This document shows, piece by piece, positions 15,186-48,623 of a stretch of DNA of 56,561 nucleotides (position 1 is the first letter of the stretch; every line of letters begins with the position of its first letter). A program made the translations under genes and the position numbers. A model generated the notes under the pieces. It saw only the letters and a program-made list of their open reading frames with translations, ran no database searches and was not told the origin of the DNA. Source of the DNA: a virus (lineage: Duplodnaviria; Caudoviricetes). The stretch lies in the IMG/VR virus record IMGVR_UViG_3300033149_005620, positions 1-56,561 of that record; one strand, given 5' to 3'.

Positions 15186-15583
15186 CTGTTCCTCCTCTCC
15201 TCGTAAAGTTTTAAGAACGCTCTAAAGCTTTTTACGACCGGGTAGATGTGACCCAGCCTTGAAAAATTCAGCTTCATGGCCTTCTGTGCGGGGGTCAACC
15301 TCCCCCTCTTGGACTTAAGCTCAAAGGCGAGCCACCGGCCGCCCCCAATGGCAATCATTCAATCCGGCCAACCAGGTGTCAGGATCCCCCGGACCCGAGC
15401 GCTCTGCCTGTTTCACTGGCAGGGGTACCCCCGGTCCTTCGCCCACTTCATTATCCTGCCTTGGAGACGCCCCTCCGGTCCGGGTTCCGCTTCCTGGTCT
15501 TCTCTCGTCTCAGCGAACCCCATCTTCCGGTTGTACTCGGCCATATACTCGCTTACCTGCTCCTCTGTCGCCCGCAACCTCAT
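15182..15583 (-). CDS. VRR-NUC (PD-(D/E)xK) nuclease with two in-frame TGA codons (candidate selenoprotein; alternatively a pseudogene)
   Basis: AAGGAGGTG RBS and ATGA overlap with the replication gene. Translation: ...EGRLQGRIMKWAKDRGYPCQ*NRQSARVRGILTPGWPD*MIAIGGGRWLAFELKSKRGRLTPAQK... TGA at 15415-15413 and 15361-15359; GxPD...ELK...LTxxQ motif intact. Absent from the ORF track. Confidence 0.8.
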
Positions 15584-16653
15584 GCGTAGGGCACCTCCTT
15601 TGATTTGAGCTGTTCGGATTGTTTTTTCAGCTGCTGCAATCGCTCCTCCTCGCTCATATCCATGCCTTTGGTCGCTTTATCCACCAGTCCAGCTAGATCC
15701 GGGGCGGCCACTGCCCTGAAGCATTTGGCGCACAATCCGGTTTCCAGATCGATCATCACGTTCGTAGCTCCGCAACCTTTACACCGTGAACTCTGTACTG
15801 GCTCCTGGAGGGGCGGACCGCTGGTCGGTTTATTGAACTCCACCCACTTGAGCACCCAGTTCCTCCACGCAGCGATCCAGTCGTTGAATTTACTTTCGAG
15901 CTTTTGGTGGTGAGCTTTAAACTTTTCGAATTGAAAGGGGACCTCCTCTTCGGGCATGTGATATCTTTTCGCATAAGCTTTCATCTCGCTGGTGGGATAG
16001 AAATTCTTTGGGAGTGGCACCTTGACTTTGAAGTGAAATTTCTCTCCCTCGGATTTTTTTGAATTTTTAGGGTGAGGAGGGTCCGCAGGTGCGGCCCTCA
16101 TATTCTCCTTCTCTATCTCCTTCTCCTTCTTTGTCTCTATCTCTATCTCCTTCTCTATCTCTGTCTCTGTCTCTTTTGTCTCCACACTTTGTGGACACTG
16201 TGTTGACACCATGGGGGACAAGGTGTGATACAAAGTGTCCACATCTTGTCTTTTAAGATGCTTCCCTCCGTACCTCCTGAGGGATTCCATCAGTGATTCC
16301 AGCAATGTAAAGGATGAGGGAATAATTTGTGAGACCATAGACAAGATTCCCTGGGCGTGACTTTCGTTTTTTGGAGGGTTCCATTTGAGGTATTTTTTGA
16401 TCAGCACAAATTTTGAGGTCTCGCAGTACTCCAAAAAACCTAATTTTTCAAGGTGTCGACATGATGTGGACACGATGTCCACACTATATCCCAGATCCTC
16501 CGCAATGTAGCTTCTTGGGAGCCGGAAGCAGCCTAAGGAGTTCCCGTGCTCACATGAAAGGAGGTATGCTCCTATCAGCTTGACCTGGTCCGTGAGGTTG
16601 TGGGCTTGAGCCCAGGACCAGTACCTTGTGTGGATTTTTCCGAATTCTCTCAT
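15580..16653 (-). CDS. Phage replication initiator (replisome organiser-like)
   Basis: N-terminal wHTH-like region (YIAEDLGYS), ETETEIEKE linker, C-terminal FEKFKAHH...DWIAAWRNW domain and a CxxC...CxxC motif. Confidence 0.8.
   Translation of the reverse strand: MREFGKIHTRYWSWAQAHNLTDQVKLIGAYLLSCEHGNSLGCFRLPRSYIAEDLGYSVDIVSTSCRHLEKLGFLEYCETSKFVLIKKYLKWNPPKNESHAQGILSMVSQIIPSSFTLLESLMESLRRYGGKHLKRQDVDTLYHTLSPMVSTQCPQSVETKETETEIEKEIEIETKKEKEIEKENMRAAPADPPHPKNSKKSEGEKFHFKVKVPLPKNFYPTSEMKAYAKRYHMPEEEVPFQFEKFKAHHQKLESKFNDWIAAWRNWVLKWVEFNKPTSGPPLQEPVQSSRCKGCGATNVMIDLETGLCAKCFRAVAAPDLAGLVDKATKGMDMSEEERLQQLKKQSEQLKSKEVPYA
16190..16482. repeat. Candidate iterons (replication origin) inside the initiator gene
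   Basis: TGT(G/T/C)GAC-type units about 11 bp apart at 16190 and 16201 and at 16454, 16465 and 16476; inverted GTGTCCAC at 16235; next to a pyrimidine tract at ~16103-16176. Confidence 0.55.
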
Positions 16654-20287: not shown

Positions 20288-20920
20288 ATGCGGAGAGTTG
20301 TATTCATGATTGATGGTTGGTTCATGCGTAAAAGGATATATAAGCTCAAAACATTTTACTATTCAGGCCCTGAGATCCGCAAATACTGCTTAAAGCATTT
20401 GCGGGAGAACGATTATCTATACCGTATCTTCTATTATGATACCGCCCCTTTAGAGAAAAAGGGGCATAACCCCATATCAAAAAAAGCCATCGATTTCAGT
20501 CAGACCGCCGTAGCCAAAGCCCAGAGTAAGTTATTCGAATCCATAAAAACCACGCCTAACTTTGCCCTTCGCCTTGGTAAGGCGGTTTGGAAAAACAATG
20601 AATGGATACTGGCTCCAGATAAACTCAAATCACTGATAAGCAAAAATCTATCTGTTGATGATCTTTCTGAGCACGATGTTCGCCCCCTTATTGAGCAAAA
20701 GGCCGTTGATATGAGGATCGGCCTTGATATAGCCCTCATAGCGATAAAAAGAATAGCTGATTTATTGATCATTATCACCGGGGATGCAGATATTGTCCCT
20801 GCTTTGAAGTTTGCGAGACGTGAAGGCATGCAGGTTTGCCTTGATCCGCTACGCAATCCTATTCAACCGGAGCTGGAAGAACACGTGGATTTCATAGATA
20901 CAAAGATTCCCAAATTATAG
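20288..20920 (+). CDS. NYN-domain (PIN-like, LabA/DUF88) ribonuclease
   Basis: VFMIDGWF, YRIFYYD, EQKAVDMRIGLD, ITGDADIVPALKFARREG. Confidence 0.92.
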   Translation: MRRVVFMIDGWFMRKRIYKLKTFYYSGPEIRKYCLKHLRENDYLYRIFYYDTAPLEKKGHNPISKKAIDFSQTAVAKAQSKLFESIKTTPNFALRLGKAVWKNNEWILAPDKLKSLISKNLSVDDLSEHDVRPLIEQKAVDMRIGLDIALIAIKRIADLLIIITGDADIVPALKFARREGMQVCLDPLRNPIQPELEEHVDFIDTKIPKL

Positions 20921-21045
20921 GCCATTCATTCCTCCCTCATAATACCCGCTAGAGCTTTCCACCGAGATAACTAACCCTTGCCAATCATCTCTCCACCAGT
21001 GGCACTTGAGTGTAGGTTTTTATTGCCGAATCATATCTTTTTTAG

Positions 21046-21074
21046 TTGACAAGTTGTAAATCTTTTAATATACT
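21046..21074 (+). promoter_or_regulatory. Sigma70 promoter for the rightward early operon
   Basis: TTGACA(21046-21051)-17 bp-TATACT(21069-21074). Confidence 0.8.
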
Positions 21075-21083
21075 TCCCCAATC

Positions 21084-21338
21084 ATGACCACCAAAATCGT
21101 CATAGTCAAGCAGCATCTCTACGAAACCATCAAGGCCGATTTTAGGCGCCAGGGCTGGGAGTTCTGCTCCGCGGTGTTTAAGGGAGGCCTGGTCACGCTT
21201 GAGTTTAGCCTAACCCCGCCACGCCCCGCCAAGCCACGGCATGCCCTGCCAAGCTGGGCCACGTTGGGCCAAGCCTCGCCATGCCATGGAAACCAAAAAA
21301 CCAGTAAGGAGGACAGCAGATGTATGAAATCGAAGTAA
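21084..21338 (+). CDS. Small hypothetical protein, nearly leaderless; its C-terminal half reads through array 1
   Basis: The first ~43 aa look protein-like; the rest is repeat-derived low complexity (PPRPAKPRHA). Confidence 0.45.
   Translation: MTTKIVIVKQHLYETIKADFRRQGWEFCSAVFKGGLVTLEFSLTPPRPAKPRHALPSWATLGQASPCHGNQKTSKEDSRCMKSK
21206..21285. repeat. Pentamer array 1: 16 x NN-RCC (GGY-NN on the minus strand), candidate guide RNA
   Basis: taGCC taACC ccGCC acGCC ccGCC aaGCC acGGC atGCC ctGCC aaGCT ggGCC acGTT ggGCC aaGCC tcGCC atGCC. Confidence 0.9.
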
Positions 21339-21919
21339 CGGTAAGAGGTTTGACGCCGATCCTGATGCACAGCGCAAGAGCGATGATGGCCCAGGCCAGC
21401 GTAAGGACGCGCAGCCAGTCAATCCCGCTCTCGGAAGACGAAGCGGAGCTATCGGCGTACAAGACCGAGGATGGATTTCTCTACATGCCAGGTGATGCAT
21501 TTCGCTCATCCATCGTCCAGGCCGCCGGGCCTTACAAGCAGGGTCGCACCTCGGTCAAGAGCGTGCTGAGCGGCGCGATCCTGGAGATGAAACCGGAAGA
21601 GCTGATCCTGGTGCGTGATGGCAAACGCATCACCGAATACGCAGTGGATGTCCGCAGGGTGGTAGTGCAGGGGAACGCGGTCCTGCGCTCCAGGGCCAGG
21701 ATAGACCTCCCCTGGGAGACAACGTGGGAGATGTGGATCGATGAGAACATGTTCAACGAAAGCTTCATCAAGGATACCCTGCCAGATATTATCAACCGCG
21801 CCGGACTGGTGATAGGCGTGGGGGACTTCCGGCCCGGATCTCCGAAGTGCAAGACGGGGAGATTCGGGCGATACGAGATTGCGAAGTATGAGTTCCCGGT
21901 TAAGAAGGGGGGCAAGTAA
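21320..21919 (+). CDS. Stand-alone RAMP/Cas7-like protein
   Basis: N-terminal beta strand plus TP (IEVTVRGLTPILMH), YMPGDAFRSSI (like RAMP iPGSslKG), thumb-like VDVRRVVVQGNAVLRSRARI, C-terminal Gly-rich loop GVGDFRPGSPKCKTGRFGRY; AAGGAGG RBS. Confidence 0.72.
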   Translation: MYEIEVTVRGLTPILMHSARAMMAQASVRTRSQSIPLSEDEAELSAYKTEDGFLYMPGDAFRSSIVQAAGPYKQGRTSVKSVLSGAILEMKPEELILVRDGKRITEYAVDVRRVVVQGNAVLRSRARIDLPWETTWEMWIDENMFNESFIKDTLPDIINRAGLVIGVGDFRPGSPKCKTGRFGRYEIAKYEFPVKKGGK

Positions 21920-21928
21920 TGCTTTTAC

Positions 21929-21993
21929 ACGCCTAGCCCGGCCATGCCGAGCCCGGCCGAGCCGGGTCCGGCCGCGCCAAGCCAAGCCAAGCT
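21929..21993. repeat. Pentamer array 2: 13 x NN-RCC (GGY-NN on the minus strand), candidate guide RNA
   Basis: acGCC taGCC cgGCC atGCC gaGCC cgGCC gaGCC ggGTC cgGCC gcGCC aaGCC aaGCC aaGCT; fully intergenic. Confidence 0.9.
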
Positions 21994-22019
21994 TATTATG
22001 ATCAAGGGAGCGACACAGC

Positions 22020-22805
22020 ATGAAGCATCTGGAGAGTAAAGAAGTCAACATCGCAGAGCTGGTGCTGGACTTCAACATCTACCCCCGGCACACGATAAGC
22101 GACAGCACCGCCAGGAAGTATCAGGAGGCCTACAGCCTGGGGGCCGAGTTCCCTCCCGTGAGGGTGGAGGCCAGGTCAATGCGGGTGGTGGACGGATTTC
22201 ACCGCGTCGCCGCCTGCACCAGGAATAAATCCGATACCATCAAAGCAGAGCTCTACGAATTTGAGGATGATAAGGATCTCCTGTTCTGGGCAATGGCCTG
22301 GAATTCCACGCACGGCCAGAACCTGTCAGAGGTTGACTACGCCAGATGCTACCTGATCGGCACAAAGGCCGGAATGAAGCCGGAGCTGATAGCCGAAGCC
22401 CTGAGTGTGAAAATTACCAAGCTAAAGCACGCGAGGCAGAAAGGCGTCGCGGATCCCAAGCTCAGACGCGCAATAACGCACGCAGACTCAGCAATATTCA
22501 AGAAGCCATCCCGCAGTGACCTTGTCCAGCCCAAAATCAAGGAAGATGAGGAGCAAAAGAAGGTCAACAGGATCTTCGAGAGCCCCACCAGGCAGGGGGC
22601 GGAAAGAAAACCCGATGAGCCAGTGATAGACTGGCGCGAGCGCTACGAGAGGGAGCTGGAGATCAGGCTCGCCCTCGAGAAGGAGAACGAGAAGCTGAAG
22701 GAGCAGGTAAGACGACTGAAGGAGACAGTGTTTCGCCTCAGCCGGGAAATCAACCCCGATGAGCCTGAATTCGTCCCCGACGAGGCGGAGGACGCCGTGC
22801 TCTAA
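22020..22805 (+). CDS. ParB/Srx-like N-terminal domain protein with coiled coil
   Basis: IYPR, FPPVRV...VVDGFHRVAA, NSTHGQNLS, HTH-like IAEALSV. Confidence 0.82.
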   Translation: MKHLESKEVNIAELVLDFNIYPRHTISDSTARKYQEAYSLGAEFPPVRVEARSMRVVDGFHRVAACTRNKSDTIKAELYEFEDDKDLLFWAMAWNSTHGQNLSEVDYARCYLIGTKAGMKPELIAEALSVKITKLKHARQKGVADPKLRRAITHADSAIFKKPSRSDLVQPKIKEDEEQKKVNRIFESPTRQGAERKPDEPVIDWRERYERELEIRLALEKENEKLKEQVRRLKETVFRLSREINPDEPEFVPDEAEDAVL

Positions 22806-22817
22806 AGGGAGGCACTG

Positions 22818-23045
22818 ATGATGTCGGACCTGGAGCTTTTCGAAATTCATGAGGGAAGACGCAAGAAGGTCGCCATTGTGAGCGAGGAGATCATCTCGCG
22901 CATGGGGCCTGAGGCCTTCTTCCCGATCCAGAAAGCTCTGGGACGCATGTGGGACCCTACCCCGGATTCGTCTGGGAATCCGTTTAGCGCCCGGTCGCCC
23001 CAACAAGGGTGGGGTTGGGACCGCAAGCGCGACGGTGACAGGTAG
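22818..23045 (+). CDS. Hypothetical protein
   Basis: GGGAGG RBS. Confidence 0.5.
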   Translation: MMSDLELFEIHEGRRKKVAIVSEEIISRMGPEAFFPIQKALGRMWDPTPDSSGNPFSARSPQQGWGWDRKRDGDR

Positions 23046-23200
23046 GGCCAAGAAAATAAAGCGTAGGAGGTTAGGCAGGGGCGCGTAACCGGGCAACCTA
23101 ACAGCATAACCTTTTGAGCCCGGGCGGGACCTAGTGGCCTGCGGAGCCAAAGCCGGGGTCTCCGCCAGGCCCATGGCCCCGCCCCAGAAGGGAGAGGTTC

Positions 23201-23473
23201 GTGCCCCGAAAGGACACAAGGCAGCAGCTACCGCTTTTCACTCCTCTTGGCCGTGCATTCTCAGAAGAGCGCGAAGCTGCCGACATGCGCATAATGGTTT
23301 TGGATTCCCTTGCGAAGCAATGGTACGGAGGCCTCCAGCGGGTCGAAGGTGAGAACTGTATCGAATGCGGAAAACCGCTCTACTTCCACTGGAATTACTT
23401 GAACTCCAAGTCGAAGGCGATTGTCTATTGCAGAGATTGCGGATGGCATACGGAGGTGCAGCTCAATGATTGA
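23201..23473 (+). CDS. Zinc-ribbon protein
   Basis: CIECG...YCRDCGW. Confidence 0.6.
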   Translation: MPRKDTRQQLPLFTPLGRAFSEEREAADMRIMVLDSLAKQWYGGLQRVEGENCIECGKPLYFHWNYLNSKSKAIVYCRDCGWHTEVQLND

Positions 23474-35457: not shown

Positions 35458-38025
35458 TTATTTCCTATATTTCCAAGCAAAATCCAGATTTGATGCACCA
35501 GGGTCATTCTCACAGTTTACCGTAAAAGTTGTATCGCCAATACTATCTACCCAGATTGCCCCTGGGGTATTTGTAGGATTTTCTATTAGAGTAATGGTTA
35601 TATCTTGTGGGTCGGGGGTAAATCCTAATCCATGAGTAATAACCTTGCTTGTTGTTCCACTGGCAATTGTCCCCGTCCCTGATGCATACGGCTTTTCCCA
35701 TTCTACAACGTAGATTTTATTCCCCGCTGAGACCTCCGTTGTTGCTCCAAGTGCACCTGTAATGTCTATAGTATCAGCATCGACAATCGTTGCGATTGTA
35801 GTACTATGAACATAAGGACTAGACTCATCTGTATCTTTGAAAATGTGAATTACGTCTCCAACTGCCATATTAGATGTTGATCCATTTATAGTAATCGTAT
35901 CAGTGTCGTCCACTGAGGCAATTGTATCTTCTATACGCTTTCTAAGAACCAACCCCCCAGTGTCAACTTTATCAGTAGCAGTATAATAACGCATCTTCGC
36001 GCCTAAATAGGTAACGGGATTAGCCCAAGCATTACCATTCCAATAGCCTACATCACAAAATGGCAGAGGGCCTTTGTTTCCAGTGGCTCCAAAATTGTAA
36101 GGTGTGGTAAAACCGTAAAAGTTATTCTTTTCAACTACTGCATCTATAAAATTTGAACCTGTTACCCGAATAGCATAATCCATATTGCCTGATTCATCGG
36201 CAATTGTATTGCCAACAACTGTAACACCGTAACATAGATCAAGGTTATACAGACGAATTCCCTGATTCATAGGACCTGTTTCGCCTGATTTAGCTGTGAT
36301 AGTGTTTCCTGAAATTGTCCCAGAAACCGTCGCACCAACTAATACAATCCCAGCACCATGAGTCCAATTATCTTCCAAGCCGTAAATCACATTTCCTGTA
36401 AGCGAGAAATTTCTGATATATTGAGCAAAAATCCCTGCATTTCCAGCGGATGTTGTGTGCTTATTGAAGCCAGTAATGATATTGTCTGACACTACTACAT
36501 CTGAAATAGCATCAAAATCTGTCCAATCGCCTGCCACAGGTTGACCAGAGATTTGAATGCCGGAATTATTAGCACCTGTGCCAGACCAAGTATCCGTTGA
36601 GGTGCCTTCAAGATAATTTCCAATGATCCTTACATTCTTAACTATATTTGTGCTGCCTGCCAGCCCAACATCAATCCCCTGGCGAACATCTTTTATGACA
36701 TTGCCTATAATCTCAAGATCGTCACAGTCATGAGACATAATGCCATCCCAGGCCCGAGGACCTGTTATCTTGTTAAAATTGATTGAGGAATATTCAAGCG
36801 GGCTGCCGCCATCATTATCACCTGTTGCTTGGATAGCATAACAATTCTGCTTCCCTGTTTCCTGATTGTCGTAAATAGTATTTTTATCAAAATGAAATTT
36901 TGTATTGCTCGTGCCATTCAGTGCAACACGCTGGTAGTTATGCAGCTCGTTTCTCTCTACCCATACACGATCCGAATTAGCAATCCAAACCAAATCAAAG
37001 CCGGTCATTACCTCAAGATCAGTTACTCTGACATCTGTGCAACCATCAAAATGGATTAATCCTCTGTCTGTAAGCTGCTCTGTAACCAATCTGCCAACCA
37101 GTTTTCCGCCTCGGCCATCAATGGTGATATTATTTTTTGAAGAAGCATAAAAAGTATTTTTATCTGTGCCGGTCTGAGTTAGTACCACACCTGGGAGAAA
37201 GTCAATCCACTGACCATCTTGTATTGTAATTTTATCTGTAAGGCTGACATCATGAGTGCAGGTGATATGGCAATTTGCGTTGCCAAAAGCATCTTGATAA
37301 GCATCAGTGTCAGACCCGTACCAGCCGGTATATATGTGCCCTGGAACAGAATAGGCGATTGATCCATCACCATCAAAAATCTGTTGTGTTGCCGGCGCAT
37401 TAATATTCTCCGGCGAATAAATCGTTACCGTCACTCCAGCAGCAGGAGAGAGGAGGGCACCGTTTTCGAATTGAAACGTTACGTTGGTGTAGGAAGAAAT
37501 GTCGTAGGTGGTGTTGACCGTGTAGGTGGTGGTGTTCGAGGAGCCGTTATGGGTGAACGCCACGGTCGCTTTTTTGCTGGTGCCTAGTGCCGTAAGGAGG
37601 TCGTAAAGTGACGATCCGTTTCCAGCAGCGCCATGGTCACTTTCCGAGGGGTTAGGATAGAGATTGTAAGATCCCCCTCCCCCCACGAATTCCACGTTAT
37701 CCATGGTCCAGATAGTGACATCGGACGAATCTTTAAGGACAAGCTTGTAAAGCCCGGACCCATAGATCGTCGCCTCACCGCGACTATCCAAAATGACAGG
37801 ATTGGTGTTGGGCGTCGAAAGGTTGCGGTCAGAGTATGTAGCCTTGCTTGTCGTGGTACCCGGGAGATAGCTGTAGAGCTTTCCTCCGGCAAGGGGTACA
37901 CCGGAAGAGTCGAACGCTTGAAACTTGGGATTGGACATGAGGGTTCCCGCCCAAGAAAGGTGGGCGAGAAGCATAAAGATAATCAGAAGCGCCTGAAAAA
38001 CGATTTTTAAGTGCCTGGATTTCAT
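35458..38025 (-). CDS. Tailspike/receptor-binding protein with parallel beta-helix
   Basis: Head-binding domain PKFQAFDSSGVPLAGGKLYSY...NTNPVILDSRG; many pectin-lyase-like IxGNxI repeats; AT-rich C-terminal part. Confidence 0.85.
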   Translation of the reverse strand: MKSRHLKIVFQALLIIFMLLAHLSWAGTLMSNPKFQAFDSSGVPLAGGKLYSYLPGTTTSKATYSDRNLSTPNTNPVILDSRGEATIYGSGLYKLVLKDSSDVTIWTMDNVEFVGGGGSYNLYPNPSESDHGAAGNGSSLYDLLTALGTSKKATVAFTHNGSSNTTTYTVNTTYDISSYTNVTFQFENGALLSPAAGVTVTIYSPENINAPATQQIFDGDGSIAYSVPGHIYTGWYGSDTDAYQDAFGNANCHITCTHDVSLTDKITIQDGQWIDFLPGVVLTQTGTDKNTFYASSKNNITIDGRGGKLVGRLVTEQLTDRGLIHFDGCTDVRVTDLEVMTGFDLVWIANSDRVWVERNELHNYQRVALNGTSNTKFHFDKNTIYDNQETGKQNCYAIQATGDNDGGSPLEYSSINFNKITGPRAWDGIMSHDCDDLEIIGNVIKDVRQGIDVGLAGSTNIVKNVRIIGNYLEGTSTDTWSGTGANNSGIQISGQPVAGDWTDFDAISDVVVSDNIITGFNKHTTSAGNAGIFAQYIRNFSLTGNVIYGLEDNWTHGAGIVLVGATVSGTISGNTITAKSGETGPMNQGIRLYNLDLCYGVTVVGNTIADESGNMDYAIRVTGSNFIDAVVEKNNFYGFTTPYNFGATGNKGPLPFCDVGYWNGNAWANPVTYLGAKMRYYTATDKVDTGGLVLRKRIEDTIASVDDTDTITINGSTSNMAVGDVIHIFKDTDESSPYVHSTTIATIVDADTIDITGALGATTEVSAGNKIYVVEWEKPYASGTGTIASGTTSKVITHGLGFTPDPQDITITLIENPTNTPGAIWVDSIGDTTFTVNCENDPGASNLDFAWKYRK

Positions 38026-38085: not shown

Positions 38086-38135
38086 AAGTATGGCAAGTCG
38101 TGGCAGTTTATGGCGTTTTATGGCATCTTATGGCA
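38086..38135. repeat. Five 10-bp tandem units NNNNNTGGCR
   Basis: aagtatggca agtcgtggca gtttatggcg ttttatggca tcttatggca. Confidence 0.75.
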
Positions 38136-41100
38136 TCGCCTGCCTTAGGCGTTCCCTTTTTGGGGGCCGGAATGCCCGCCTGATATTGTTTCGTATGGAT
38201 TTCCGGGTGATGAGGGGTGCGAGGCGCTCAAGCCCGTGCGCCCTTACCGCTTCGTTGTAATCTTGAATTTCAGCGATGATATCCAACCAATCCGCCTTGG
38301 ACCGTTCAGATAGGGGACGCAGGTAAAAGCGCTTGATCTTGGCGTAGATATCCGTCCTCATTTCTCGATATTTCTGTTCAATGCGCCTCTCCTTCCATTG
38401 CTTCTCCCTAATCCCCGCGATCCTTGCGGGATTAAAGGAGAGAGCTCTGTAAAGTGCATCAATCGTCTCCGGGAGGAGCGGTTCATTGCCCCAGAAGACG
38501 GGTGCATTGTTTCTGGTGGTCACCCCCTCTGTGGTCTCTCTATATGCCTTTACTATTCCGGCCATGAAGAGCGGTAGTTCATTTTCGATGCCCTTTAGGA
38601 CGTCGCCACGCAAAATGCTTTGTGGACCGCGGTAGAATGTTTCAGATATGACGCTTCCAGGAGCGCCAAGGATTTCGGGTATCGTCGTTGGGATGTCGGT
38701 AATTCCGATCTGAAGCGAACCCTTAAGGGATACGCCTGCGAGACCGAAAGCGCCGAACCTGCCGAATCGCTCAGCGTATTCGCCAAAATTCCGGTTCAAC
38801 CAGTCGTAAAATTTTTCCTCTGGGTCTTCTCCGCCTATGCCCAGGGCTTGAGCGATTGCCGTTATGATAGGCGTAGAGACAGTCGCCCCAGTCCCGGCCA
38901 GCACGGCTGGACTCAGGAGCATCCACGAAAAAGCCTTTGCGTGCTCGGGCTTCCAGCCGGGACCCCACACTCGCTTCATGGTCAGAAGGTAGTTGTGCGA
39001 AAAGGTCCGGAATACGTAAAACATTCTGGCAATTTGCGCGGCAGGATTGGCGCCCCTAGCGAGGTATGGGATATTCGCCTTTCCGTAAACTCCGTGAGCC
39101 TTGTCTGAGACCTCCTTTGCAATGCGCAGGGCTTCGTCGTGGTTAAAGCTCCCTTGGGGTGTTTGGAGCTTCAATCCAAGGTAAGTGCCTGCAATTGTCG
39201 AAACCCTGTTGAGTTGCTCGGTAGCCCCGAAGCCGAGCATGGCCCATTCGATTGCCCTGTTCCACCCTCGGCCTAGCTTGCTCTCAAGAACTGACAGCGC
39301 TTCGCGATTGTATTGCGACTTGTGCCAGCCTTTCTGTTCGATCTCCTCAAAAAGGTCCTTGACGTGCTGCGGTAATTTATCCTTGTCACCGAATTTATAG
39401 TGGCCGTAAAGCCTGGAGGCGTTGCCGATGAGACGGAAGGTCTTGTGTATCGGGATCCCAGCGATACCTTCCATAGCTGCCGGGACTGACGTTACCATGG
39501 CAGTGAGGTTCACCAAGGGGGCGCTGATGCGGCCGCCTAGATATTTCAGCACCGCCACGCCCTTGACTGTGCCCACGAACCGGTCAATCCACTCTTCGTT
39601 CCTGAGCACGTCCTGCAGGTACGCTTTGCCTTCCCTGAAGGCATTGGGCTGTTTCGTGGGGTTGACCCGCCGGTCCTCCACCATGTTGAGCCACTCCTCA
39701 TACGTGGCGTCCTCGCCCTCAAGGGTCTTGTACTGCTGCCAGGTAATGTCTGTGCCAGTGAACGCTCGAACCATGTCAAGCGCTGCGATCCTTTTAGCCT
39801 CCCCTGCGGCCAACCCCGACGCATATTTCGCCGCGGCAATAGCCGGGTCCTCCTCATAACCGATCCAGACATCCTTGCCCTTGGCCATTTGGCGCTGGAT
39901 CATGTGGGCACGGTGCCCACGACCCTTTATGATGTTGGCCACTTGCTCGGCCATGGCTTTTGCGAACAGTACCTGCACCTCTTGGTCAACTATGCCAACT
40001 GAGTTGGCCAGCGCCTTTGCGACCTTTTTGTCGAAATTCGGGCCAGGGTTGTAGAAATGCCAGGCCCTCGGCTCCCCTTCATACGCTGAATAGAACTTTC
40101 CGCCCAGCTCCTTAAAGACCCGTGTCATCCTCTTGGATGTCGGTCCGGTGATAACGAAGTCCCTGAGCCCTGGCCTTACCATCCTGTCGGTCCACTGGAG
40201 GTTAAAGTCCTCTAAAGATAGTCCGCGCGCATGTATACGCTCAAGGGCCTGATTGATCTGCGCCTGCATGGCAATGACCTGGCCTGCCATTTCGAAGACG
40301 TCTTCCGGCATCTTGGGGGAGAGATCCTTCGTGACGGTGTACCCTTTCCTTTGGAGTTCTGTGTGCCGCTTGGCAAGAAGCGTTTTGGTGTCAAAGAATT
40401 CCATGATCGGGTTTTCGCCCTTCTTTTCGGCGTACAGCACGAATCGCCCGGGCCTTCTTATGCGCGGGAAGTAGTAACCTCGCATATCCCCCATCATGGC
40501 TAGGGCGGTTTTGAGGTCAACTTCTACCCTTTTGTTGTCCAGCCTGACCGCTACTGAGGGTAGTGCCGTACCCGACTCCTCATATTGGCTGATAATTTCG
40601 CGCATCGAAGCTGACAGGATATTAAAGCCTTTATGCATGATTAGCCGGAAGGACACCACCGCGTCAACGGCTTGGTCGGGAAAGCCGCGCTTTCTAAGGT
40701 CCTGAGCCTCCATTTGAACGGCAGCGCCCCATGCCTTGGCCTCAGAGTCATAACTGCCCACTAACTGGCCGTTTGGTTTCCTGAGCTTCCATAGGTCGCT
40801 ACCCTCGTCTTTCTCAACCCTGTACCCTATTTGGTTGCGGTCGCGGTTGACTAGGTACGCCTTGACCTTAGCGTAGTCCTGTTTGTGGCGCTTTCTGAAG
40901 TCCTCCAGCTTTTTGGTAAGGTATTCACCTTTACTGTTCTTGGTTAGGAGATTCAGGTACTCATAGTAGGTGTCGGGCCTGGCAAGAGCCGCCTCGTACA
41001 TTCTCCTTAAAGCGGGGACCTTCTCAAAGTGATGTGCCGGCACTGATATGAGGCGGTCGAGGACCGTGGTATCTGGCTTTTGAGCTTTCCACCCAGCTTT

Positions 41101-44100
41101 GCGGTTCTTCCATATTTCCCCAAGCGTGCGGAGGGGGCCTAAGGACCCCCTTGAAAAACCCTGTTCGTATTTCTTCTCTTCAGCCTGAAAAGTGCCTTTG
41201 CGTCCGCCGTATTTTTCCCAGGTCTCGATCACGTGCCTGTTCCAGTCATCAAATGTGCCTGAGAAATGCTTGGTCGGAACTATGCGGGGCTCGACTTCTG
41301 CTTCTTTCCCCGGGGGCTCCGCCAAAGAGAAAGCCGTCGTAGTCTCTTCGATCTCTGGTGCGCCAAAATGCGGGACATACTGCCCGGTGACCATTTTGCC
41401 CCAGATATCCTCGGGACGGGTAAAACCCTGTCCCTTGAGCCCGTTCCTAATGATTTGCAGGTAGCGGCGCAACCTCATCATGATTGCGCGGATCATGTTG
41501 GGCTTATCTTTGAGCGATGAGCGATTCACCATGAATTCCGCAAAGGCATCCGCAGCGGCCTCCTCGCTACCAAAATATTTTATCAAGTGCTCCGCATCGG
41601 ATTTTGTCAGTAGCCATCTCTGGGCCACGTGCATGTATTCGTGATAGGTGGTGCGTTCCAGCCCTTTCAAATTCTGAAGCGACAGGGCAAGTTCCATAAT
41701 CGCGCGATAATCGTCAAAGGTGGTAGCACCAAAAATCTGGCGTATCCCCATGCCCTGTTCCTGCCACTCCTTCACTGACTTGGCAATATTTTTTCCGCTC
41801 AAGGAGATTATGGGCTTTAGCTCTACATCAATGCGCTCAAGCACTTCGGGAGGTGCTCCGGCTTTTTCGAGCCAGGAGTGAACCAGCTTGGCGGTCCTTT
41901 TGATATTTCGGAATTGGCGCGGGGATAGGCGGTATGGTTGTTCGCCGCGGAGAGCTAGTTTGGTTTCGGAAAGAAGCGTGGCATATTTTGTGGGACCTTT
42001 GCCACGCCCTTGTCGCGAAGCCCACGATTGGGCTTCCCAAAATACGTCTACTATCGTCAAACCTTCAATTCCGTTCCACAGGGCATTGACGTAGTCCGAG
42101 CGCGCCTGGGTTAGCACGCTGTTGTTGACGATCATTCCGCTGGCGTTGGTGGCTTCGGCGATCCTTAGAACGTCGGCGGTGGTCTGCTTCATGCTTCTGC
42201 CTTTGATAAAGGGCACAAAGGCAAGCACCCTGTTTTTGCGGTCAAGGAGCATAACGCCATCGTCATTATTGAATTGCTCCTTCAGGGCTTTGAGCGCGTC
42301 CTCCGAATCGACGATTCTAGTCTGTGGGGCGCCGCCGAGAAGCAGGCTGCGCTCTTTCACCGGAAGGCTAATTTTGCGAATTCTGGGGCGGATCTTCCTT
42401 GTTGTCTCTGCCACTTCCCCTGGGCGCATCTCAACGTATTCGGTTCCACCAAGAATAAGTGATGTCAGTTCCACATCGCCAGCCTCAAGAAGGCTCCTGA
42501 CGCTTGAAGTTATCTGGTAATCTTCTTTGCCTGGTTTCGGGTCACCTGTGGGATGGTTGTGGACGAGATAAGCTTCAGATGCCCCAGGTATGTTCAGTAT
42601 CCGCCCAGCAAGTTCAACGGGGTTGGCTATGGCACCGGCGCTGTGACCCTTGGCGTACTTGTGGATCTCAAGGATTCCACCTTCTTTATCAGTCGTTACC
42701 GTGTAAAGGAATTCTTGTGGCGATTTTCTGAGGAAGGCGAGGAGGGCTGCAACATCCTCTGGGCCTGATACGAGTTCTCCCGCCGCTCTAATTCGTCCGG
42801 TTGTGGAAACTCGCACACGTCTACGGGGAGGTACTTTACGATCCTCTTGCCGTTCGGCAGGCTTGAAATCAAATAGTGAATATTGCTCTTGGGGCGTGGT
42901 AGGTGCATAAATGTATTGTGCCCCGCTTTCACCTATCTTGTCAACACCTCTCTCAAAAATATCAAGCGTTTCCCCCTTCTCCGGGGCAAGCAGACTCTTC
43001 TGTTTGCCGGTGGTAGGGGGTTTAACCTTTTCTTTGGGGATAGCGGCTTTAGGCTTGAGGTATTGCTGAAAGACTCGGGCGGCCTTTGCCTGGTCAATCG
43101 TAAAGGTTTCCGGGTCAAAGCCCAGTTCTTTGAGGCCCTCCCAGGAGCCTTCGACTTCGTAGTAGATCCGGCCTTCACTGTCCCTGCCTCTTATGAGCTT
43201 GCGGCCATCGGGGAGTTTAATGATTTCTCGATCCCCTTCCCGATATGCCTTGATGGGCTTTTCAATCTCGCCTTTTGCCCTCAGTAATTCGACCCTCTCT
43301 TGAGGCGTTGGCTCGGTCGGTTTGAGTTCAAGGGCTGGTCTTGCAGCCTTCTCCCTTGGCTGTGCTTTCTCGACTTCTTTGGGTTTCTGCGCAGCCTCCA
43401 GCTTACTCAGTGTAACGGAATCGTATATCTTATACCAGTCTTTCGCGTCCATGCCCGGCTTTAAGCCAGTCTTTCTAATCCAGTGGCTCCAGGATTCCTG
43501 CCTACCAACACCCTTGGCTTTAAGTTCCGCTGCGAACTCTTCGGGGTTTAGCGGTACTACCTTAATTTTCAGCCTTGCTCCCAAAAGTTCCTTGTGCGCT
43601 TCATCCAGTGTTATTAGGCCGCGCTTCAACCGATCAATCGTCCCGTAAAAACCTTTGGCTTCAAGTTGCTTCACGATGTCTTCATAGGATTTTTTGGACG
43701 CGGATGGGGGAATCCTGCGACTTGTCCAAGTGGTCCGCCCATTTGGTTCCCTCTGAAGGACGTAGACAAGGCCCTTTTCGTCGTCATAGAGCTTCCAGGT
43801 CTCAGCGCTTTCCCTTCCCGTACCGGGCAGGCGTTCGACCCGAGCCCCGGCTTTCTTGGCTTTTTCAATAGCCCTGATAATCTTTTCACGCGGGGTGTAA
43901 TGCCATTTCTTTTCCGTGGGATCCCACACGCTTTGCTGCACAGCGTGAACCCATCCAATGGCATCGTCTATAGATTTGCTCTCAGGAGGGCTCTTTCTGG
44001 CGGGGGGTCTTTCTGCCTGCTTCTCTTCGGCGGGTTTCAGGCCGAGCTCTTTATCAAGCCAGTCCTGGTCTTCTTGGGAAATCTCCTTCCATGCTTCGTC

Positions 44101-47088: not shown

Positions 47089-47090
47089 TT

Positions 47091-48623
47091 TTACTTCTCC
47101 TCGCTTCTGAGTCCGGCTGTTCCAGGAATCCTTATGCCCAAGAGGGCATTGCCAGCCCAATTCAAGCCTTTCCAATAGGTCTTGAAGGCCTCCCGGAGGT
47201 ATTGCTCAGTCCACTTATCCGCCTTCCGCACCTTCTTGAAGAACTTCTTGAATGAGTCGAAGTCCACCACCTTTTCATCTTCCGGTAAAAGTGGGAGGTA
47301 CTCTGCCGCTACTGCGCCAGCGCGCTCGGGACTCATGCCCGATACAAGCCGTTTCCCAATCTCTTTTGCCGCCTCAGCAATTGTCAGGTTCTGGGTTGCC
47401 TCCTTGCGCAGTTCCTGGCGTATGGCGTTGACTTCTGGCGAAACCGGAGGGGGACCCTCAATCTGCTGGGCATTAAGGGCATCCCTAAAACGCTCTTGCG
47501 CTTCCGGGTTCTGCTTGAAGTAAGCTTCTGTTGCAGCCCGAACCTTGGGAAGACTCATAGGGTCAACGCCCTGTTTGAGTAGCTCGGCATGGATAGCGAC
47601 AAGCTTGGAAAACAATGAGCCAGCAGTCGGTTGGGTCGGCGCCGCAGGTGCCGTTGCTCTTGGAGCCTCCGGTAATGCTGATGGCGTTATAGGCGCTCCA
47701 CGAGGGGCTATTCCTGTAGGTTGAGCTAAAGCGTTGGTTGGTCTTTGGCCGCGGATTTGGTCTATCTGTTTCATGGTTTCTTCGAGGCGTCGAGTTGCGG
47801 CCGCTGCCTGTTCTGGAGGCACAACAGGGTTGCCCTGAAGATCCTTTTCTCCCATGCGGTACGCCTGTATTATTTCAATCTCTGCTTTTGCCTTCTCTTC
47901 GAGCAAGTTCAGCCTGCTCTTTTGCGCCGGGGTCAATCCAGGCTGCTCGTATTTTGCCCTGATTCTCTGCTTGGCTTCCTCAAGGTCAAGCAACTCTTCC
48001 TTGGTGGAGGGCTCCCACTTCTTCCTCTTTCCAATTCGTTCATCATAGGTCTGGTACCGCACCGGATCTTCTGCTTTCTTCGCCCGAGCCTCCGCCTTGG
48101 GAAGGTTATAAACCCTCCGCTCAGCCGTGTCGTATAAGGGCTCAATTTCCCCAGCTTTACCGAACTTGATACCGACATTATGTGCAGCTGCGAAATCAAA
48201 GAATCTGGCTTGGTATTCCGGGTTCTGGTGAATTTGGGGCAAATACTGCCTGAGTTCCTCCATCACGGTCTTGACGTCTTGGGGGTCCCCAATTACCTCG
48301 GTGCCATCAGCAAAGGTGTAGTGGCGGTCGTTTTTATCTATACGCCACGTTTCAGCTGGAGGGTCTGAATCTGGCTCCAAAGCCTTGAAGGCCTTGTCAG
48401 CAAGGTCCTTGTTCCCGGTTTTCTCATAGGTGTCAATGTAAGCGTTAAAGGCATCCAGACTTCGTTTCGCCTTCTCGTATTCCTCTGCTCTGCCTACGTC
48501 CCTCAAATCTCGCTCCGCCAATGCCTGCCTCGTCTGGAGGTATTTCAGGCTTAAAGCGTTTTGCATTGACTTGCCTATTGAGGGGACAGGCGGCGGATTC
48601 ACTAAAAAATTAGCCATTTTCAT
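47091..48623 (-). CDS. Putative DNA ejection/internal virion protein
   Basis: Helical Ala/Gln/Pro-rich protein between the pilot gene and the giant gene. Confidence 0.6.
   Translation of the reverse strand: MKMANFLVNPPPVPSIGKSMQNALSLKYLQTRQALAERDLRDVGRAEEYEKAKRSLDAFNAYIDTYEKTGNKDLADKAFKALEPDSDPPAETWRIDKNDRHYTFADGTEVIGDPQDVKTVMEELRQYLPQIHQNPEYQARFFDFAAAHNVGIKFGKAGEIEPLYDTAERRVYNLPKAEARAKKAEDPVRYQTYDERIGKRKKWEPSTKEELLDLEEAKQRIRAKYEQPGLTPAQKSRLNLLEEKAKAEIEIIQAYRMGEKDLQGNPVVPPEQAAAATRRLEETMKQIDQIRGQRPTNALAQPTGIAPRGAPITPSALPEAPRATAPAAPTQPTAGSLFSKLVAIHAELLKQGVDPMSLPKVRAATEAYFKQNPEAQERFRDALNAQQIEGPPPVSPEVNAIRQELRKEATQNLTIAEAAKEIGKRLVSGMSPERAGAVAAEYLPLLPEDEKVVDFDSFKKFFKKVRKADKWTEQYLREAFKTYWKGLNWAGNALLGIRIPGTAGLRSEEK

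Follow-up and report, generated by a model that had tools for sequence, protein, structure and literature searches.

What does a single RAMP-like gene do between two arrays of five-nucleotide units in a phage genome, and which strand of those arrays would serve as its guide? Systems of this kind, named VIPR (Viral Interference Programmable Repeat), were described in 2026 (10.64898/2026.04.26.720920, 10.64898/2026.04.26.720927) and as such are already known; new here is a fixed triplet that reads GCC-NN instead of GGY-NN on the vipr strand. We read the locus as a VIPR system whose array 2 is directed against a rival terminase and whose guides come from the vipr-sense strand with its GCC triplet, and we give this reading as a whole a probability of roughly 0.5. 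The DNA analysed is IMG/VR record IMGVR_UViG_3300033149_005620 over its 56,561 nucleotides (hereafter the window), a complete virus that has terminal repeats and encodes an integrase and a repressor. The virus is a temperate phage that carries the VIPR module in its early region, and its host is probably a sulfate-reducing member of the Desulfobacterales. The module comprises the following features:

21046 to 21074, plus strand: putative sigma-70-like promoter, TTGACA-17-TATACT, 11 of 12 consensus positions.
21084 to 21338, plus strand: open reading frame of 84 aa that starts just past the promoter and runs through array 1; its status as a gene is uncertain.
21208 to 21290, plus strand: array 1, 16 phased GCC-NN units (12 of 16 with exact GCC) and a terminal GGA; the minus strand reads GGC-NN.
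21320 to 21919, plus strand: vipr, a 199-aa minimal RAMP of the Vipr family, assigned by profile, fold and PHROG.
21931 to 21995, plus strand: array 2, 13 phased GCC-NN units (11 of 13 with exact GCC).
22020 to 22805, plus strand: vap-like gene of 261 aa, its product combining an N-terminal ParB-like domain with a C-terminus that resembles a coiled coil; assigned by phrog_1033.

The 199-aa reading frame carries the motifs PGDAFRSS and GVGDFRP...GRFGR. When a family profile built from the window protein and six homologs was compared with the PDB, its sole match was 36pp_D, ‘SUSP1 Vipr protein’ (E=1.6e-16); the single-sequence comparison with SUSP1 Vipr was weak (E=0.34). PHROG gave phrog_4652 (E=1.3e-14), Pfam assigned no family, and the Vipr family as a whole counts 6034 representatives at E<=1e-3. 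An AF2 model (pLDDT 75.6) was searched with Foldseek, and the top matches were all Csm3, Cmr4 or type VII Cas7 (best E=5e-5, TM 0.43–0.53). We thus identify the predicted product as a Vipr homolog. The preliminary description of this DNA, made from its letters, had proposed a structural comparison and a search for arrays beside homologous genes: the first returned only Cas7-family proteins at the top, and the second found adjoining period-5 GG-type arrays at 77 of 91 homolog loci.

The arrays themselves are highly regular. Array 1 units span 21208–21287 and use 8 distinct dinucleotides; a partial GGA unit follows, and the array ends 30 nt before the vipr ATG. Array 2, with 7 distinct dinucleotides, starts 12 nt past the vipr stop, and 24 nt separate its end from the vap ATG. 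Across the 56.5-kb window, a threshold of 8 phased NNGCC units in 12 is reached in the two arrays and nowhere else (maximum 11/12). All 200 first-order Markov surrogates stayed below it (highest value 5), as did all 50 local-composition surrogates (highest value 6). The complete genome holds no further pentamer array. Neither strand showed a conserved 3′ tail downstream of the arrays or matched a known RNA family, Rfam giving a single sub-threshold snoRNA match. In RNA folding, sense array 1 had less structure than shuffled copies of it (z +1.7), and nothing stood out in the three remaining regions. The roughly 50 nt preceding arrays 1 and 2 match each other at about half of the aligned positions. 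Searches for the same guide elsewhere gave 0 matches, both for the window's own array form on either strand and for a GGY-scaffold version in coding-sense order.

Could the gene be left over from a CRISPR-type Cas7, or encode an unrelated protein beside slippage-type repeats? The missing Pfam family and the weak single-sequence match to SUSP1 Vipr would fit such an origin. Against it, Vipr was the only profile match in the PDB, most homolog loci carry period-5 arrays, and the variety of dinucleotides is unlike slippage. Furthermore, Cas1 and Cas2 had no match in the genome under searches whose positive controls did match, and the complete genome contains no CRISPR-like tandem array; the cas gene search covered Cas1 and Cas2. 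We regard a non-VIPR origin as highly improbable.

Downstream of array 2, the 22020–22805 product matches phrog_1033, ‘ParB-like partition protein’ (E=2.1e-7). Pfam gave nothing above cut-off, with coiled-coil families at sub-threshold level only, and a sequence search of the PDB gave no match. Homologs of this gene lie directly downstream of vipr in the metagenomic loci L012, L013 and L015. The supplement text of the founding paper (10.64898/2026.04.26.720920) does not mention ParB, vap5, vap6 or antisense arrays.

The promoter at 21046..21074 is the only plus-strand site in a scan of 20800–23300, which gave no terminator-like site on either strand. Neighbouring genes from 19215 to about 35000 all lie on the plus strand. 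Array 1 encodes the last ~42 residues of the 84-aa reading frame, whose product had no match in Pfam or PHROG searches. The preliminary description was borne out: it had named a RAMP/Cas7-like gene, arrays of 16 and 13 strictly phased 5-nt units that simple slippage could not yield, a ParB-like gene behind the RAMP gene, a consensus sigma70 promoter ahead of the module, and a genome without cas1, cas2 or a CRISPR array. Its proposal of a non-CRISPR, RNA-guided system, in which RAMP subunits polymerise along RNA with a 5-nt period, each bound to one constant triplet and displaying the dinucleotide, is likewise supported. It had also pointed to a resemblance to viral VIPR, and rightly, the protein being a Vipr homolog and the architecture that of close relatives.

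Taken together, the locus is very probably a VIPR system. How would it work? From the promoter at 21046, one plus-strand transcript would cover the two arrays together with vipr and the ParB-like gene. If the system works as SUSP1 VIPR does, protomers of Vipr would polymerise along the array RNA, one per 5-nt unit, each sequestering the constant triplet and exposing the two variable bases. The exposed bases may then pair with double-stranded DNA matching NN-x-NN-x, where the filament would silence transcription.

What is the target? We read targets by the published 1-nt-skip rule (NNxNNx), under which units 1–10 of array 2 (full series TA CG AT GA CG GA GG CG GC AA AA AA TA) specify 20 bases. 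This 10-unit pattern had 5 exact matches among viral contigs and 1 in prokaryotic genomes totalling 596 Gb, and all six fall on one 29-nt site in a terminase large-subunit gene (phrog_2, E=1.8e-28), in codon phase 1. The site encodes the peptide YRMERDGRAN, the skipped base is the wobble position, and the six sites differ among themselves at these skipped wobble bases. The last two AA units of array 2 are the units that do not match the terminase target. The prokaryotic match lies in a MAG, and the site is found in Desulfobacterales genomes; among 209 genomes of the MAG's order, 4 places matched with at most one mismatch, versus about 0.1 expected by chance on our own estimate. At 3 mismatches the same genomes gave 38 matches versus 25 for a backward-pattern control, which we counted as noise. 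With up to 3 mismatches allowed, array 2 has no target within the window itself, and the terminase that the phage encodes is of a different family, phrog_38. Array 2 is thus likely, as predicted from these matches, to aim at the gene for the large terminase subunit in another phage lineage, one resident in Desulfobacterales genomes; therefore, the most likely effect of the system is to keep a competing phage or prophage from packaging its DNA.

For array 1, whose coding-sense reading is Y-P-T-P-K/N-T-I/M-L-K/N-G-T-G-K/N-S, we scanned the 10-unit pattern and an 8-unit half other than units 1–8. The 10-unit pattern had no match in viral contigs. The 8-unit half had 47, mostly in generic NGTGKSI peptides, and the best of them extended to 11 of 18 units. 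The array 1 pattern is absent from the MAG that holds the terminase target, and across the 209 genomes it gave one 3-mismatch match, out of coding phase, versus one control match. The preliminary description had proposed a discontinuous target, possibly serving repression of rival phages or host genes; array 2, with its wobble-phased site in a rival terminase, supports this, and for array 1 no target was found.

A genuine Vipr could also stand beside arrays that are not working guides. The arrays might be decayed or ‘switched-off’, or be plus-strand RNA elements with another role, for example as decoys or in controlling the translation of vipr and vap, with any real guides supplied in trans. 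Such a role would suit the mismatch between the scaffold of the transcribed strand and the binding expected of the conserved contact residues, as well as the lack of a detectable array 1 target and the reading frame that passes through array 1. Both orphan arrays and solo vrRNAs that act in trans have been documented (10.64898/2026.10.15.759431), and in our scan 18 of 80 loci with GCC/GGC arrays had no vipr within 1.5 kb. However, 23 of the 29 units are exact, a regularity that decay would erode; the target of array 2 is specific and wobble-phased and lies in a gene essential to other phages; and the complete genome has no other pentamer array. We therefore consider non-guide arrays improbable.

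Which strand, then, is the guide? On the minus strand the arrays read as a perfect canonical scaffold, with GGC in 12 of 16 units of array 1 and 11 of 13 of array 2. The preliminary description had correctly seen GGY on the minus strand and had missed how exceptional that strand is: across about 150 related vipr loci the repeats are GGY-NN on the vipr strand, and besides the window the sole GCC-NN exception is L142. Two readings compete. In the one that we prefer, as an evenly balanced call, the guide RNA is the vipr-sense strand with the scaffold triplet G-C-C, a further non-canonical VIPR repeat code. In the other, which is possible and less probable, the system is the same and canonical GGC-NN vrRNAs are read from the minus strand and are antisense to vipr as well as to both ribosome-binding sites, that of vipr and that of vap; the 3′ tail following each array would in this case overlap the 84-aa reading frame or the vipr 3′ end.

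Position and transcription point to the sense strand. The arrays fill the same intergenic slots as the sense GGC arrays of L013, L015 and L047, and array 1 has the position of the upstream array in L015 and L013. The promoter on the plus strand is strong, and the scan showed no minus-strand promoter-like site upstream of either array. Antisense guides would have to be made without such a site and without a terminator, amid neighbours that all lie on the plus strand; a weak minus-strand −10-like CATAAT, read from the sequence 7 nt before array 2 and below the scan threshold, speaks for them. Their origin would require two arrays to be inverted in place within 70–85-nt slots, with junctions undisturbed. 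No inverted repeats bracket the arrays, and the idea of an invertible segment was dropped for this reason.

The ends and composition of the arrays agree with the sense strand. The sense strand of array 2 has a 3′-terminal AA-AA-AA run; among 334 canonical arrays, at least three AA units stand at the 3′ end in 22 and at least three TT units at the 5′ end in 0, whereas array 2 read as antisense would start TT-TT-TT. GGA follows array 1 on the sense strand, GGA/GGG being the commonest slot after canonical arrays (93 of 332), and the minus strand of both arrays lacks a terminal partial GGA/GGG unit. Within canonical arrays GCY is the commonest non-GGY unit (109 of 2697 units). A test of NN composition favoured the sense strand (LLR +3.44), a value confounded by the coding-strand bias of the window (0.087 per dinucleotide versus 0.123 in the arrays). 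Homology of the flanks to those of the ParB-clade relatives did not reach significance (z no higher than 1.6).

The triplet and the protein argue the other way. GCC is the exact reverse complement of canonical GGC, as would result from an inverted canonical array. SUSP1 Vipr contacts G1 through H17 and D177, G2 through R138 and W178, and Y3 through R179 (10.64898/2026.04.26.720927). By alignment the window protein has H17, R125 and D169-F170-R171 at the equivalent places, the equivalence of H17 being positional, as the HMM alignment begins only at residue 36–49. Every reported G1, G2 and Y3 contact is kept, as in the GGC-using relatives, with W>F at the W178 equivalent common to the window protein and canonical relatives. 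The alternative repeats NNNGG, YNNNG and NNNNG given in the Methods of 10.64898/2026.04.26.720920 retain the second G, and G2 and C3 are kept in L001 and L004, the closest viral relatives. The long G-loop insertion of the window protein also occurs in the canonical loci L095, L125, L168 and L171. Because the contact residues are kept as in the GGC relatives and this insertion is shared with canonical loci, no feature of the predicted protein marks an altered triplet specificity. A sense-guided Vipr would hence read G-C-C with all SUSP1 G-G-Y contact residues in place, its code, natural and possibly orthogonal, being set by other determinants; we rate this slightly below even.

L142 offers a natural precedent for arrays opposite to the vipr strand. 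Its arrays look canonical on the GGC strand, where 4 of 5 end in a partial GGG/GGA, and a spacer classifier scored +8.9; thus, arrays antisense to vipr do occur.

If the sense G-C-C reading is true, the switch would be recent, since the nearest relatives still use GGC, and could be dissected by a few residue swaps; a GCC-reading Vipr beside GGC-reading relatives would also open a way towards VIPR tools that are orthogonal and multiplexable. Should the arrays be canonical antisense guides, the locus is a new VIPR member whose gene layout is unusual, and its importance falls accordingly. Either a new GCC scaffold or antisense-encoded guides would add to what is known of how vrRNAs are made and recognised. 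The predicted rival-terminase target would extend the reported “inter-phage warfare” role to DNA packaging. Judged from its sequence, the locus is a clean, complete example of VIPR that has a ParB-like accessory gene and for which a natural target is predicted.

How does the locus compare with known systems? With the class 1 CRISPR backbone subunits Csm3, Cmr4 and Cas7 the protein shares an RRM/RAMP fold, a thumb and a glycine-rich loop. Identity to them is only ~10–15%, the window has no other cas genes found and no repeat-spacer array, and its period is 5 nt versus 6 nt.

SUSP1 VIPR is the founding example (Escherichia phage, type II). In it as in the window, the minimal RAMP has a size of ~20 kDa, a thumb arginine and a G-loop of the form GVGD[WF]RP...FGR, the gene is flanked by arrays of 9–16 pentamers with a fixed triplet and variable NN, and there is one accessory gene of DNA-binding type; both systems are phage-encoded and without cas genes or a CRISPR array. 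The predicted target likewise follows the 1-nt-skip rule with the wobble base skipped, in a gene of a competing mobile element. The rules of VIPR rest so far on a few E. coli and Pseudomonas systems. The window differs from SUSP1 in its fixed triplet on the vipr strand (GCC, not GGY), in lacking an evident long conserved 3′ tail or pseudoknot, its arrays abutting the next ribosome-binding site, in its ParB-like accessory gene, and in a protein whose identity to SUSP1 Vipr is detectable by profile only. In place of a satellite recombinase or a lysogeny regulator, the target predicted here is a terminase gene.

Non-canonical VIPR arrays (GAC/NN, CAC/NN, WGT/NN and TGH/NN) share with the window a period of 5 and a non-GGY triplet beside Vipr-like folds. 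In the main text of 10.64898/2026.10.21.760802 these scaffolds make up 21 of 99 period-5 clusters; therefore, as far as that text goes, the scaffold can change, which favours the sense reading. Array strand was assigned there by embedding consistency, RNA data not being the basis. GCC, GCY and RCC are absent from this main text, the full motif list being in Fig. S10A, outside our search.

L142 (IMGVR_UViG_3300027908_000040) shares GCC-NN on the vipr-sense strand. Its Vipr is 21% identical to that of the window, its accessory gene is a different one of 145 aa, and its 4–5 tandem arrays come after the operon, adjoining a convergent portal-like gene; a search for relatives of this Vipr returned only itself.

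The closest proteins, at 33–36% identity, belong to a clade with ParB-like vap genes (metagenomic L012, L013, L015 and probably L047); a genome-contig search with the single protein found no closer relatives. This clade shares with the window the order array, vipr, array, ParB-like gene, similar array lengths and start-codon distances, and arrays that terminate in AA units, with only short A/T-rich tails after them. The difference lies in the triplet: on the vipr strand all members of the clade read GGC-NN, whereas the window reads GCC-NN.

Vipr proteins of VIPR (Viral Interference Programmable Repeat) systems, first reported in 2026, are described as ~20 kDa polypeptides that polymerise, one protomer per pentamer, on a guide RNA (vrRNA) made of 9–16 YNNGG units and a 3′ tail after them. 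The protein holds the flipped-out GGY (G1 by H17 and D177, G2 by R138 and W178, Y3 by R179 and a narrow pocket), and it is the NN bases that pair with double-stranded DNA, in the form NN-x-NN-x. Natural targets lie in competing phages and satellites, the skipped base being the wobble position, and each locus carries one accessory vap gene (10.64898/2026.04.26.720920; 10.64898/2026.04.26.720927; 10.64898/2026.10.15.759431). We found that the window locus belongs to this kind, with a probability of about 0.93.

The preliminary description had proposed an RNA-guided, VIPR-like module built on a lone RAMP/Cas7-like gene, and the protein bears this out. The RAMP-like motifs it quoted are present in the 199-aa ORF. 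A Pfam search of the protein returned nothing and phmmer against PDB sequences gave weak matches ("SUSP1 Vipr protein" third, E=0.34). A profile built from the protein and six homologs (33–36% identity) had a single PDB match, 36pp_D, "SUSP1 Vipr protein" (E=1.6e-16, profile positions 38–187), which places the module in a class already known. The AlphaFold2 model (pLDDT 75.6, pTM 0.75) gave 47 Foldseek matches at E<=1e-3 (best E=5e-5, TM 0.43–0.53); nearly all of those listed, including every top one, are Csm3, Cmr4 or type VII Cas7 backbone subunits, as expected of the suggested RAMP fold. In the family alignment, H17, R125 and D169-F170-R171 are retained, as is every strongly conserved position.

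The family counts 6034 representatives at E<=1e-3 and matches PHROG 4652, "unknown function". By tblastn it occurs in 158 phage records, including 77 Escherichia and 29 Mycobacterium phages, the best match being Saal (33% identity). Mycobacterium phage Saal (NC_023580) carries ~250 nt of canonical GGC-NN arrays (36582–36835) 5′ of its Vipr homolog. Its gene 51 ("hypothetical protein") is annotated from ~150 nt ahead of the Vipr homology, where the array region ends; this start is therefore probably mis-called. Such mycobacteriophage genes are Vipr genes that lack annotation.

Features of the window locus
21046–21074, + strand: promoter-like TTGACA-17-TATACT, 11/12 positions matched, 5′ of the arrays and vipr
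21208–21287, + strand: array 1, 16 phased pentamers, 12/16 exact GCC, 8 distinct dinucleotides
21320–21919, + strand: vipr, 199 aa
21931–21995, + strand: array 2, 13 phased pentamers, 11/13 exact GCC, 7 distinct dinucleotides
22020–22805, + strand: vap-like accessory gene, ParB-like (phrog_1033, E=2.1e-7)

The two bracketing arrays, the sigma70 promoter and the ParB-like gene had all been noticed from the sequence alone, and each held up. In the window, arrays 1 and 2 alone reach at least 8/12 phased NNGCC units (maximum 11), a level attained by 0/200 Markov (maximum 5) and 0/50 local-composition surrogates (maximum 6); Tandem Repeats Finder reported merely weak period-10 and period-15 repeats there. 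An 84-aa ORF (21084–21338, +) starts 10 nt past the promoter −10 box, spans all of array 1 and ends within the beginning of vipr. It looks like a small folded domain (first ~42 residues) with an array-encoded remainder, and had no match in Pfam or PHROG; unlike this read-through ORF, the upstream gene in relatives ends just 5′ of the array.

As a virus record the window is complete, bounded by direct terminal repeats and encoding integrase, repressor, portal protein, major head protein and terminase. Across this genome we found no match to Cas1 or Cas2 and no CRISPR-like array, as first stated. The phage is temperate, and its VIPR locus lies in the early region, adjoining the repressor. Directly 5′ of its promoter lies a gene for an NYN-domain protein (20288–20920, +; PF01936, E=2.1e-6; phrog_5783, E=1.8e-58), a predicted RNase that could have a role in RNA processing. 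Elsewhere, TCTCTA-type tandem repeats (16103–16174, period 6/18/24/30) within a DnaD-like replication-initiator gene (15580–16653) look like origin iterons, and a single 3015-aa ORF (38128–47175, −) sits among the structural genes.

Which strand carries the guide? We compared 91 loci (11 viral and the best 80 of 346 confirmed metagenomic ones). At a threshold of at least 7/8 phased units within 1.2 kb of vipr, GGYNN arrays were vipr-sense in 56/91, absent in 35/91 and antisense in 0/91. A motif-agnostic period-5 scan found sense-strand GG-type pentamers in 77/91, so homologs do carry the flanking arrays that the preliminary description had proposed to look for, and GCCnn in the window alone. 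Two loci (L001 and L004) have sense-strand NGC-NN arrays followed by a terminator hairpin. The window arrays line up exactly with the arrays of ParB-clade relatives. That they are not guides of the window Vipr appears improbable.

We put at about even odds that the guide is the vipr-sense strand, with a GCC-NN scaffold. Besides colinearity, several features count for it: the strong + strand promoter, a scan that detected no minus-strand promoter-like site 5′ of either array and no terminator, and a search for inverted repeats able to flip the arrays that found none. Array 2 closes with AA-AA-AA; in a set of 334 distinct canonical arrays (127 loci), 22 have a run of at least three AA units 3′-terminally and 0 have a run of at least three TT units 5′-terminally (57 and 3 for runs of at least two). 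A partial GGA unit directly follows array 1, and in 93/332 canonical arrays the next slot reads GGA or GGG. GCY is the commonest non-GGY unit within canonical arrays (109/2697). Published non-canonical triplets, GAC, CAC, WGT and TGH in 21/99 period-5 clusters adjoining Vipr-like folds, also count for a GCC scaffold; the main text of that report does not contain GCC, GCY or RCC as triplets (10.64898/2026.10.21.760802).

Alternatively, and somewhat less probably, the guide is a canonical GGC-NN RNA from the antisense strand. GCC and GGC are exact reverse complements, the window protein retains all reported G-contact residues, and its long G-loop insertion is also present in canonical loci L095, L125, L168 and L171. 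Moreover, L142 (IMGVR_UViG_3300027908_000040; Vipr 21% identical) shows that arrays opposite vipr are possible. Four to five tandem pentamer arrays (1396–1770) lie there on the strand opposite vipr-vap, adjoining a convergent portal-like gene, with GAC in place of GGC in 9/46 units; on the GGC strand, 4/5 arrays close with a partial GGG or GGA unit. Its internal spacers (n=3) scored +8.9 with an orientation classifier that was right for 45/57 loci (12/13 with at least three spacers).

Dinucleotide composition is asymmetric in canonical arrays (e.g., AA 303 vs TT 154) and favoured the sense strand in the window (LLR +3.44); among 30 similar-size loci, 23 had the right sign, 11 reached +3.4 or more and 0 fell to −3.4 or less. 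We gave this little weight because the window's coding strand shares the bias (0.087 per dinucleotide vs 0.123 in the arrays). At L142 the same statistic (+5.3, toward the sense strand) contradicts the spacer and end signatures, making the test unreliable alone. Flank homology, folding and Rfam did not help in choosing the strand of the window arrays.

What might array 2 target? The matches are identical for the sense and antisense patterns, which are reverse complements. A pattern of the first ten array 2 dinucleotides with a single wildcard between neighbours (20 specified bases) matched exactly five times in viral contigs. Among prokaryotic genomes (596 Gb) it matched exactly once, in a Desulfobacterales MAG; for that collection ~1 match is expected by chance (uniform composition). 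All six fall at one site, encoding (E/P)VYRMER(D/E)GRA(N/K)VV, of a single protein family, identified as the terminase large subunit (phrog_2, E=1.8e-28). Matching starts on codon position 1, and the skipped wobble bases vary between sites; because of their homology, the six are taken as a single independent event. No match extends to the final two AA units of array 2 or to the unit ahead of its first GCC.

In 209 genomes of the MAG's order, four places had at most one mismatch (G001 twice, G097, G192; by our estimate ~0.1 expected by chance), the G097 site likewise inside terminase; three-mismatch matches (38) were near the backward-pattern control (25). G001, a Desulfobacterales MAG, has the exact target and a one-mismatch copy on different contigs (C21 and C49), suggesting two related prophages. 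By our estimate, a wobble-phased match of this kind would arise by chance within a phage gene a few percent of the time; it is therefore good, non-conclusive support. The query had no self-match in the window at up to three mismatches, and the window's own terminase (phrog_38) is of another family with no detectable similarity to the target. We consider it very probable that the window system silences terminase in a rival phage lineage that occurs in Desulfobacterales. Array 1, read likewise as Y-P-T-P-K/N-T-I/M-L-K/N-G-T-G-K/N-S-I/M-I/M, had no convincing target in viral contigs, that MAG or the 209 genomes.

How does the locus compare with known systems? A two-strand scan of viral contigs for (GCCNN)6GCC gave at least 80 loci, of which 80 were fetched. 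Among the matches listed, vipr lay within 1.5 kb in 62/80, 61 of them canonical and L142 the sole one whose vipr strand reads GCC. The remaining 18 (at least seven consecutive GCC/GGC pentamers; among the matches listed, L093–L172) had no vipr within 1.5 kb and may represent orphan (solo) vrRNA arrays like those reported in SUSP1-like phages. The window arrangement is thus one of two in the ~150 loci examined. The closest loci (L012, L013, L015 and L047, the last cut at the contig end) share its order, [array]-vipr-[array]-ParB-like gene, with arrays ending 13–30 nt 5′ of the next start codon. Relative to known VIPR systems, the novelty of the window locus is its repeat orientation or scaffold, together with its ParB-like accessory clade and predicted packaging-gene target.
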